Source of the DNA: Escherichia coli
GTDB lineage: Bacteria; Pseudomonadota; Gammaproteobacteria; Enterobacterales; Enterobacteriaceae
NCBI RefSeq assembly: GCF_009931435.1
Contig: NZ_CP043414.1
DNA length: 64,000 nucleotides
Reading direction: 5' to 3' (one strand)
The position numbers and the translations under genes were made by a program. The notes below the pieces were generated by a model that saw nothing but the letters and a program-made list of their open reading frames with translations, was not told the origin of the DNA and ran no database searches. Position 1 is the stretch's first letter; every line of letters starts with the position of its first letter. Below are positions 4,217 through 28,127 of this stretch, one piece after another.

Positions 4217-5884
4217 GTGGCTCAATTCGTTTATACCATGCATCGTGTCGGCAAAGTTGTTCCGCCGAAACGTCATATTTTGAAAAACATCTCTCTGAGT
4301 TTCTTCCCTGGGGCAAAAATTGGTGTCCTGGGTCTGAACGGCGCGGGTAAGTCTACCCTGCTGCGCATTATGGCGGGCATTGATAAAGACATCGAAGGTG
4401 AAGCGCGTCCGCAACCGGATATCAAGATTGGTTACCTGCCGCAGGAACCTCAGCTGAACCCGGAACACACCGTGCGTGAGTCCATTGAAGAAGCGGTTTC
4501 TGAAGTGGTTAACGCTCTGAAACGTCTGGATGAAGTGTATGCGCTGTACGCCGATCCGGATGCCGATTTTGACAAGCTGGCCGCTGAACAAGGCCGTCTG
4601 GAAGAGATCATTCAGGCTCATGACGGTCATAACCTGAACGTTCAGCTGGAGCGTGCGGCGGATGCGCTGCGTCTGCCGGACTGGGACGCGAAAATCGCTA
4701 ACCTTTCCGGTGGTGAGCGTCGTCGCGTGGCGTTGTGCCGCCTGCTGTTGGAAAAACCAGACATGCTGCTGCTCGACGAACCGACCAACCACCTGGATGC
4801 CGAATCCGTAGCGTGGCTGGAACGCTTCCTGCACGACTTCGAGGGCACCGTGGTTGCGATTACCCACGACCGTTACTTCCTCGATAACGTTGCAGGCTGG
4901 ATCCTCGAACTTGACCGCGGTGAAGGTATTCCGTGGGAAGGTAACTACTCCTCCTGGCTGGAGCAGAAAGATCAGCGTCTGGCGCAGGAAGCTTCACAAG
5001 AAGCAGCGCGTCGTAAGTCGATCGAGAAAGAGCTGGAGTGGGTACGTCAGGGAACTAAAGGCCGTCAGTCGAAAGGTAAAGCACGTCTGGCGCGCTTTGA
5101 AGAGCTGAACAGCACCGAATATCAGAAACGTAACGAAACCAACGAACTGTTTATTCCACCTGGACCGCGTCTGGGCGATAAAGTGCTGGAAGTCAGCAAC
5201 CTGCGTAAATCTTACGGCGATCGTCTGCTGATTGATGATCTGAGCTTCTCGATCCCGAAAGGGGCGATCGTCGGGATCATCGGTCCGAACGGCGCGGGTA
5301 AATCAACCCTGTTCCGTATGATCTCTGGTCAGGAACAGCCAGACAGCGGCACCATCACTTTAGGTGAAACGGTGAAACTGGCATCTGTCGATCAGTTCCG
5401 TGACTCAATGGATAACAGCAAAACCGTTTGGGAAGAAGTTTCCGGCGGGCTGGATATCATGAAGATCGGTAACACCGAGATGCCAAGCCGCGCCTACGTT
5501 GGCCGCTTTAACTTTAAAGGGGTTGATCAGGGTAAACGCGTTGGCGAACTCTCCGGTGGTGAGCGTGGTCGTCTGCATCTGGCGAAGCTGCTGCAGGTTG
5601 GCGGCAACATGCTGCTGCTCGACGAACCGACCAACGACCTGGATATCGAAACCCTGCGTGCGCTGGAAAACGCCCTGCTGGAGTTCCCGGGCTGCGCGAT
5701 GGTTATCTCGCACGACCGTTGGTTCCTCGACCGTATCGCCACACACATTCTGGATTACCAGGATGAAGGTAAAGTTGAGTTCTTTGAAGGTAACTTTACC
5801 GAGTACGAAGAGTACAAGAAACGCACGCTGGGCGCAGACGCGCTGGAGCCGAAGCGTATCAAGTACAAGCGTATTGCGAAGTAA
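4217..5884 (+). CDS. ettA: ABC-F translation factor EttA (YjjK)
   Basis: 555 aa with two ABC cassettes (GLNGAGKST..LSGGERRR..LLLDEPTNHLD and GPNGAGKST..LSGGERGR..LLLDEPTNDLD). Confidence 0.95.
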   Translation: MAQFVYTMHRVGKVVPPKRHILKNISLSFFPGAKIGVLGLNGAGKSTLLRIMAGIDKDIEGEARPQPDIKIGYLPQEPQLNPEHTVRESIEEAVSEVVNALKRLDEVYALYADPDADFDKLAAEQGRLEEIIQAHDGHNLNVQLERAADALRLPDWDAKIANLSGGERRRVALCRLLLEKPDMLLLDEPTNHLDAESVAWLERFLHDFEGTVVAITHDRYFLDNVAGWILELDRGEGIPWEGNYSSWLEQKDQRLAQEASQEAARRKSIEKELEWVRQGTKGRQSKGKARLARFEELNSTEYQKRNETNELFIPPGPRLGDKVLEVSNLRKSYGDRLLIDDLSFSIPKGAIVGIIGPNGAGKSTLFRMISGQEQPDSGTITLGETVKLASVDQFRDSMDNSKTVWEEVSGGLDIMKIGNTEMPSRAYVGRFNFKGVDQGKRVGELSGGERGRLHLAKLLQVGGNMLLLDEPTNDLDIETLRALENALLEFPGCAMVISHDRWFLDRIATHILDYQDEGKVEFFEGNFTEYEEYKKRTLGADALEPKRIKYKRIAK

Positions 5885-27359: not shown

Positions 27360-27395
<36 letters not shown>

Positions 27396-27461
27396 AAACC
27401 TGCACGTTAGTTTCCTGATGGACATTTTTCCAGCAATTACACCTCCGTCGATAATTAACTA

Positions 27462-27489
27462 TTGACGAAAAGCTGAAAACCACTAGAAT
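27462..27489 (+). promoter_or_regulatory. Candidate sigma-70 promoter of the leuQPV tRNA operon
   Basis: TTGACG, 16-bp spacer, TAGAAT, followed by a GC-rich discriminator (GCGCCTCC) about 40 bp before the first tRNA. Confidence 0.45.
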
Positions 27490-27530
27490 GCGCCTCCGTG
27501 GTAGCAATTCTTTTTAAGAATTGATGGTAT

Positions 27531-27617
27531 GCGAAGGTGGCGGAATTGGTAGACGCGCTAGCTTCAGGTGTTAGTGTCCTTACGGACGTGGGGGTTCAAG
27601 TCCCCCCCCTCGCACCA
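27531..27617 (+). tRNA. leuQ: tRNA-Leu (anticodon CAG), copy 1
   Basis: 87-nt GCGAAGGTGGCGGAATTGGTAGACGCGCTAGCTTCAGGTG...CCCTCGCACCA with encoded CCA; long variable arm; anticodon CAG. Confidence 0.95.
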
Positions 27618-27645
27618 AAAACCACGTTGATATTGCTCGCACTGG

Positions 27646-27732
27646 GCGAAGGTGGCGGAATTGGTAGACGCGCTAGCTTCAGGTGTTAGTGTTCTTACGG
27701 ACGTGGGGGTTCAAGTCCCCCCCCTCGCACCA
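27646..27732 (+). tRNA. leuP: tRNA-Leu (anticodon CAG), copy 2, with a C-to-T change at position 48
   Basis: Identical to copy 1 except GTTCTTACGG instead of GTCCTTACGG in the variable arm. Confidence 0.95.
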
Positions 27733-27765
27733 AACGAGGCGATATCAAAAAAGTAAGATGACTGT

Positions 27766-27852
27766 GCGAAGGTGGCGGAATTGGTAGACGCGCTAGCTTC
27801 AGGTGTTAGTGTCCTTACGGACGTGGGGGTTCAAGTCCCCCCCCTCGCACCA
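27766..27852 (+). tRNA. leuV: tRNA-Leu (anticodon CAG), copy 3
   Basis: Identical to copy 1. Confidence 0.95.
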
Positions 27853-27890
27853 ATTATCTTTACTTCCTTTCTTGTTTCTTCCTTGTTTTT

Positions 27891-28127
27891 TCATCCCTGA
27901 TTCCAGTTCATTATCATCAGCATGACACCAGCAATAAGCGCCAGGCACGATGGTAGCAAAATGTAATGCCGTAACTGTTTGTGATACAGCATTACCGGCG
28001 TCAATACTAATCCCATCAGAATGACAATCCGCCACTGATCCGGCGATAAATCCGCATACATCAGCCCTGCAATCAGCAATCCCGGCAGCAACACTCCCCA
28101 ACCACTGCCCAGCATACGTTGCAACAT
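27891..28127 (-). CDS. yjjZ: Small membrane protein YjjZ (DUF1435)
   Basis: Start placed at MLQRMLGSGWGVLLPGLLIAGLMYADLSPDQW... (78 aa). Confidence 0.7.
   Translation of the reverse strand: MLQRMLGSGWGVLLPGLLIAGLMYADLSPDQWRIVILMGLVLTPVMLYHKQLRHYILLPSCLALIAGVMLMIMNWNQG

Follow-up and report, generated by a model that had tools for sequence, protein, structure and literature searches.

The middle tRNA-Leu(CAG) gene of the Escherichia coli leuQ-leuP-leuV array carries the reference leuP sequence, a probable long-inherited U·G variant of the variable arm

The leuQ-leuP-leuV operon and its single-base difference

The window analyzed here, a stretch of 64,000 nucleotides from contig NZ_CP043414.1 of Escherichia coli (RefSeq assembly GCF_009931435.1), contains three tandem tRNA-Leu(CAG) genes on the plus strand, which ARAGORN placed at positions 27531-27617, 27646-27732, and 27766-27852. 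The array lies between rsmC and yjjZ/fhuF, as in the best-matching E. coli annotation, and is the leuQ-leuP-leuV operon. Because the published order is leuQ (promoter proximal), leuP, and leuV (PMC2190699), copy 1 (27531-27617) corresponds to leuQ, copy 2 (27646-27732) to leuP, and the distal copy 3 (27766-27852) to leuV. ARAGORN, alignment, and Rfam were used for all three copies, each of which is identical to its K-12 counterpart. The Rfam tRNA model RF00005 (gathering score, 29) gave 48.5 bits for each copy. The scores are the same because this model treats the variable arm as an insertion, and alleles differing in that arm are not rankable by it.

In an 87-column alignment of the three copies, column 48 is the sole variable position, with T in copy 2 and C in copies 1 and 3. 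We refer to the former as the U-form and to the latter as the C-form. Linear nucleotide 48 of leuP is window position 27693 on the plus strand. Since this difference is read directly from the sequence, an argument from chance does not apply to it. The initial annotation had described copies 1 and 3 as identical and copy 2 as carrying T for C at this position, and the alignment bears this out. The number 48 counts nucleotides linearly from the start of the 87-nt gene; canonical tRNA position 48 is linear U59, which is the same in all three copies. Canonical U48 is the Levitt-pair partner of A15 and a leucine identity element (PMC9976931).

The three genes are separated by short spacers. The leuQ-leuP spacer (27618-27645, plus strand; 28 nt) is identical to that of K-12, with a mean pairwise identity of 89% across 12 genera, while the leuP-leuV spacer (27733-27765, plus strand; 33 nt), which contains a run of six A residues, has a mean pairwise identity of 82% across genera.

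The best sigma-70-like match of the region (10/12 positions) lies upstream of leuQ at 27462-27489 on the plus strand and consists of a -35 hexamer, TTGACG, a 16-nt spacer, and a -10 hexamer, TAGAAT. Both hexamers are unchanged in 17/17 aligned sequences from 12 genera. Its position and conservation suggest that this site is the operon promoter. Directly 3' of the -10 hexamer lies a G+C-rich discriminator, GCGCCTCC (27490-27497, plus strand), which is unchanged across the 14 leaders compared from different taxa. G+C-rich discriminators of stable-RNA promoters are associated with growth-rate or stringent control, and GCGCCTCC may have such a role. Ahead of the first tRNA gene, the leader can form a hairpin, CAATTCTT-ttt-AAGAATTG (27505-27523, plus strand). 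Each of its six core pairs can form in 14/14 sequences from different taxa, with compensatory double changes at two of them (A-U to G-C and U-A to A-U). As a control, sliding the 3' partner by 1 to 3 columns lowered pairing to only 11 to 50%. Between rsmC and the promoter, the window also carries a REP-like palindrome, gtcggatgcggcgtgaacgccttatccgacctac (27370-27404), which is probably a REP element. K-12 has 78 bp more in this interval, apparently a second inverted REP unit, which is absent from both the window and O157:H7.

The array is followed by a C/T-rich, unstructured trailer (27853-27900, plus strand). A search for an intrinsic terminator 3' of the array found no terminator-like site on the plus strand. 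One strong promoter-like site and no plus-strand intrinsic terminator, as judged from the sequence, would be consistent with a single transcript that has a Rho-dependent end. Mohanty and Kushner (2007) place leuQ proximal to the promoter and describe a polycistronic operon transcript, with an unstructured Rho-dependent terminator after leuV and separation of the tRNAs by RNase P (PMC2190699). In the mechanism we propose, the three genes would be cotranscribed from one promoter and cut apart by RNase P, and leuP, the middle gene, would yield a tRNA-Leu(CAG) that reads CUG.

Structure and predicted function of the U-form

The variable arm spans linear nucleotides 46 to 57 and, in the C-form, comprises the pairs G46-C57, U47-A56, C48-G55, and C49-G54 closed by a UUAC loop. 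T at 27693 converts the C48-G55 pair into a U·G wobble with the G at 27700, exactly the change from C-G to U-G in the variable-arm stem that had been proposed from the sequence. Free minimum-free-energy (MFE) folding of the 87-nt copies produced a cloverleaf for none of them, and the z-scores were weak (-1.4 and -0.6). We evaluated a fixed cloverleaf because free folding was uninformative on the variant. On this fold, the energy is -30.0 kcal/mol for the C-form and -27.1 kcal/mol for the U-form, a loss of 2.9 kcal/mol; the isolated variable arm changes from -5.2 to -2.3 kcal/mol. Within the cloverleaf, the variable-arm stem pairs of leuP have probabilities of at least 0.96. The further suggestion that the wobble is structurally tolerated agrees with these values and with the retention of the allele in thousands of genomes and many genera, as set out in the sections below.

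All features expected to direct leucylation are the same in the three copies. In E. coli, the leucine identity elements are the discriminator A73, the A15-U48 Levitt pair, and G18G19 (PMC9976931). A73 (linear A84, just before CCA), A15, canonical U48 (linear U59), G18G19, and the encoded CCA are invariant across the array. Copy 2 has the characters of a bacterial type II tRNA-Leu: a cloverleaf with a CAG anticodon, a long variable-arm stem-loop, and the leucine identity elements. In their review, Giegé and Eriani report that leucylation in E. coli is uncorrelated with the sequence of the variable arm or with how the arm folds and that structural variation of the arm is tolerated (PMC9976931). 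All four tRNA-Leu(CAG) genes of E. coli are reported to be highly expressed (PMC8510543). From its identity to K-12 leuP and the literature on leucyl-tRNA synthetase (LeuRS), which does not read the arm, leuP of the window is predicted to be aminoacylated with leucine and to decode CUG. The U·G pair, in place of C-G, would weaken the arm stem slightly; because the weakened stem is one that E. coli LeuRS does not read, the wobble is likely neutral or nearly so.

Alternatively, leuP could be a gene in decay, already partly disabled and heading toward pseudogene status. Additional C-to-T changes in the D stem of leuP, absent from the neighboring copies, might be taken as signs of such decay. They occur in Escherichia albertii (C24T; L005, 12791-12877) and in O111:H8 (C26T; L003, 1616-1702), with the outer copies unchanged in both cases. 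Every such change, however, still pairs as a G·U wobble, and other copies of the array vary too, as illustrated by A52T in copy 1 of several genera. On both counts we rejected the interpretation that leuP is degenerating. It is further contradicted by the intact identity elements and encoded CCA, by an Rfam score equal to that of the neighbors, by the retention of exactly one difference across many genera, and by the high expression reported for this gene (PMC8510543). We regard decay as very unlikely.

Allele states within Escherichia coli

The operon of the window is essentially that of E. coli K-12. A 370-nt alignment with the operon of MG1655 is identical, T included, save for one A in a spacer poly(A) run. 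The K-12 leuP gene has the same 87-nt sequence with T, the same 28-nt first spacer, and the same leader and promoter hexamers, and the neighborhood (rsmC, three tRNA-Leu genes, yjjZ, and fhuF) is shared. The one difference lies in the A run of the leuP-leuV spacer (27747-27752), which has six residues in the window versus seven in MG1655 and three to seven in other genera. The C-form genes of E. coli (leuQ, leuV, and leuT) match leuP at 86/87 positions. They share with it the anticodon, acceptor stem, D arm, T arm, discriminator A, and encoded CCA, and the difference lies in the third pair of the arm stem, which is C-G in these genes and U·G in leuP.

The initial annotation had assumed that the K-12 copies are identical. 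This assumption fails, as the middle gene of MG1655 has the same T. The variant is in fact already known, being a documented difference of K-12 leuP: two papers set K-12 leuP one variable-arm base apart from leuQ, leuT, and leuV, one of them a tRNA-seq preprint that groups the identical genes as "(leuP), (leuQ leuT leuV)." The mistaken belief is understandable and has also been published, as a figure of Mohanty and Kushner (2007) shades the four genes as "identical nucleotide sequences" (PMC2190699). One record labeled MG1655 (CP025268) has a C-C-C array, with 9 rather than 8 C residues in a run of the third copy. We rejected it as the K-12 reference state, given that another MG1655 record and the literature show T, and we regarded it as either a derivative or misassembled.

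Each copy in the window contains a run of eight C residues spanning the T stem and acceptor stem (27602-27609, 27717-27724, and 27837-27844). Of the indel hotspots reported for E. coli tRNA genes, this run is by a wide margin the strongest (PMC8510543). It probably explains the 85- to 89-nt "tRNA-Leu" genes of several assemblies, including an MG1655 record with nine C residues in the third copy and C in leuP (L124, 1650-1737).

We next consider the frequency of the two alleles across strains. The exact 87-nt T allele was present in 4536/5429 E. coli records. A context query of 88 nt, consisting of the leuQ-leuP spacer and leuP nucleotides 1 to 60, located the leuQ-leuP junction in 4976/5426 complete E. 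coli genomes; 450 genomes lacked it. Among the junction-bearing genomes, T was exact in 4526 (91%) and C was exact in 130, and the remaining ∼320 differed at another base. The count of 130 was obtained with an E-value limit of 1e-30, which excludes 60-nt partial matches (100% identity) from genomes without the spacer; a looser search returned 561 C records, a number inflated by those partial matches.

These counts bear on the possibility, raised by the initial annotation, that T at 27693 reflects an error of sequencing or assembly or is a polymorphism private to one strain. That suggestion drew on the belief in identical K-12 copies, to which the "identical" sequences of PMC2190699 lend some weight. 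Against it stand the same T in K-12 MG1655, the description of the K-12 difference in two papers, the exact recovery of T from 4526 to 4536 independent complete E. coli genomes, and its presence in many other genera. With T in 4526/4976 junction-bearing genomes versus C in 130, T is the common E. coli leuP sequence, an outcome named beforehand as counting against the suggestion. We consider an error or private polymorphism to be extremely improbable. Position 27693 carries the reference leuP allele; read-level checking is unneeded, and it is a C at this position that would be unusual. Although the four tRNA-Leu(CAG) genes of E. coli are frequently described as identical, they are not, and their nonidentity affects both the mapping of allele-resolved tRNA-seq data and variant calling in this repeat.

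The genomes that depart from C-T-C show how the T can be lost. C-C-C arrays were found in enterotoxigenic E. coli (ETEC) H10407 and in O55:H7 strain CB9615. The O55:H7/O157:H7 lineage displays four array states: C-T-C in O55:H7 DEC5E, C-C-C in O55:H7 CB9615, two C copies in O157:H7 TR01, and a single copy in O157:H7 Z1723. All four strains retain an intact leader and trailer. Array losses in E. coli fit gene conversion, for C-C-C, and recombination between repeats, for arrays of two copies or one. By these routes, T would sometimes be lost from E. coli, through conversion to C-C-C or collapse of the array.

The shared operon sequence does not reflect a close relationship of the surrounding DNA to K-12. 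Over window positions 20000-44000, the closest of 5426 complete E. coli genomes is 99.5% identical; 99% is reached by four records, and most others lie at 95 to 99%. The flanking 24 kb is only about 97 to 98% identical to most E. coli genomes. Because only four of the 5426 genomes reach 99% over this interval, the window is from a sparsely sampled E. coli lineage; its tRNA-Leu operon is nonetheless essentially the K-12 sequence.

Distribution of the U-form across genera and its origin

We searched a set of bacterial genomes, one for each species, for GTTAGTGTTCTTACGGACGTGG, the variable arm of the U-form. As the scan required T, it shows no losses of T. The arm was found at 120 or more loci in at least 96 genomes, and among the matches listed, all belonged to Enterobacterales or to unclassified metagenome-assembled genomes (MAGs). 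According to the tRNA annotation of the matching loci, at least 30 arrays are outright C-T-C, including those of E. albertii, Salmonella enterica subsp. arizonae, Citrobacter, Klebsiella, Raoultella, Kosakonia, Pseudocitrobacter, Phytobacter, and Intestinirhabdus. Other arrangements were rarer: among the matches listed, six arrays are C-C-T (Trabulsiella, Pluralibacter, and the more diverged Enterobacter, Lelliottia, and Huaxiibacter), and one is T-T-C (Kosakonia arachidis). Two-copy arrays also occur, with the order T-C in Xenorhabdus and C-T in Morganella and Proteus.

The setting of these arrays is shared as well. Among the matches listed, rsmC lies directly upstream and on the same strand in 78/84 tandem-type loci checked. 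The identity of RsmC to the E. coli protein is 97 to 100% in Escherichia, ∼80 to 93% in most other Enterobacteriaceae, and 54 to 58% in Xenorhabdus, Proteus, and Morganella. Because the arrays lie directly downstream of rsmC, we take those of the different genera to be the same locus. The reading that we prefer, at a probability of about 0.88, is that T at 27693 is the normal leuP sequence, an old, inherited, and near-neutral variant of a working tRNA-Leu(CAG). Under this model, the C-T-C arrangement at the rsmC-linked locus would have been inherited across genera of the Enterobacteriaceae, with no new mutation in the lineage of the window. We infer common descent of the T rather than repeated origin. 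Independent origin in distant clades is possible to some degree, because C-to-T changes producing G·U wobbles are seen repeatedly in these genes: in addition to the D-stem changes in leuP of E. albertii and O111:H8, C49T in the Enterobacter and Lelliottia arrays creates a wobble at the adjacent variable-arm pair.

The U-form is also found outside the array. A U-form leuT is present in most of the non-E. coli genera scanned and in Escherichia whittamii (L006, L010, L012, L054, and about 35 other loci). In Enterobacter, Citrobacter, Klebsiella, Raoultella, Pantoea, and E. whittamii, it has the same 87-nt sequence as leuP of the window. This leuT gene sits in another operon, argX-hisR-leuT-proM, between tRNA-His and tRNA-Pro; K-12 has the C-form there, as reported in the tRNA-seq preprint. 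Since leuT is of the U-form elsewhere and of the C-form in K-12, the lineage leading to E. coli has switched leuT from U to C. In 16/40 genomes with a U-form leuT, no U-form copy was found in the tandem array among the matches listed.

These distributions raise the possibility that the two forms are functionally different and that both are kept by selection, whether through stability, modification, fragments, or a tRNA-targeting nuclease, or else that the mismatch slows unequal recombination by breaking the 87 bp of perfect identity between neighboring repeats into segments of 47 and 39 bp. Both forms do occur at one locus from Escherichia to the Morganellaceae; outside E. coli, most genera have the U-form as their usual leuT. 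In addition, the outer copies of C-T-C arrays almost never carry T, with a single T-T-C array among more than 40 arrays listed, and the O55:H7-O157:H7 series places a C-C-C array (CB9615) beside arrays of two copies (TR01) and one copy (Z1723). That series, however, represents one clonal lineage. The whole operon evolves slowly. The identity of the promoter, leader, and spacers is 82 to 89% across the same 12 genera, and about one-third of the 28 alignment columns of the first spacer vary, by our reading of the alignment. Because the operon evolves slowly, three unchanged sites are unsurprising. For this reason, and because losses are invisible in a scan that required T, we rejected the argument that cross-genus conservation demonstrates maintenance of T by selection. 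The 130 E. coli genomes without T in leuP, the 450 without the junction, the switch of E. coli leuT to C, and the indifference of LeuRS to the arm likewise weigh against selection, which we consider unlikely. Slightly more doubtful still is the fuller proposal that the forms are nonequivalent and have both been kept since before the split of the Enterobacteriaceae and Morganellaceae, with the wobble altering processing, modification, cleavage, or targeting or with the mismatch guarding the array from collapse.

With old inheritance of a near-neutral variant as the preferred reading, the recurrence of C-T-C across genera, together with occasional C-C-C arrays or collapse (O55:H7/O157:H7), could make this locus a small test case for how tandem tRNA genes become homogenized or avoid it; selection is not shown by the present data. 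We note that the arrays of Enterobacter, Lelliottia, and Huaxiibacter (L011, L029, L058, and L119) have diverged into markedly distinct versions of the tRNA, with A5C and C49T in copies 1 and 2 and C48T, C77T, and C79T in copy 3.
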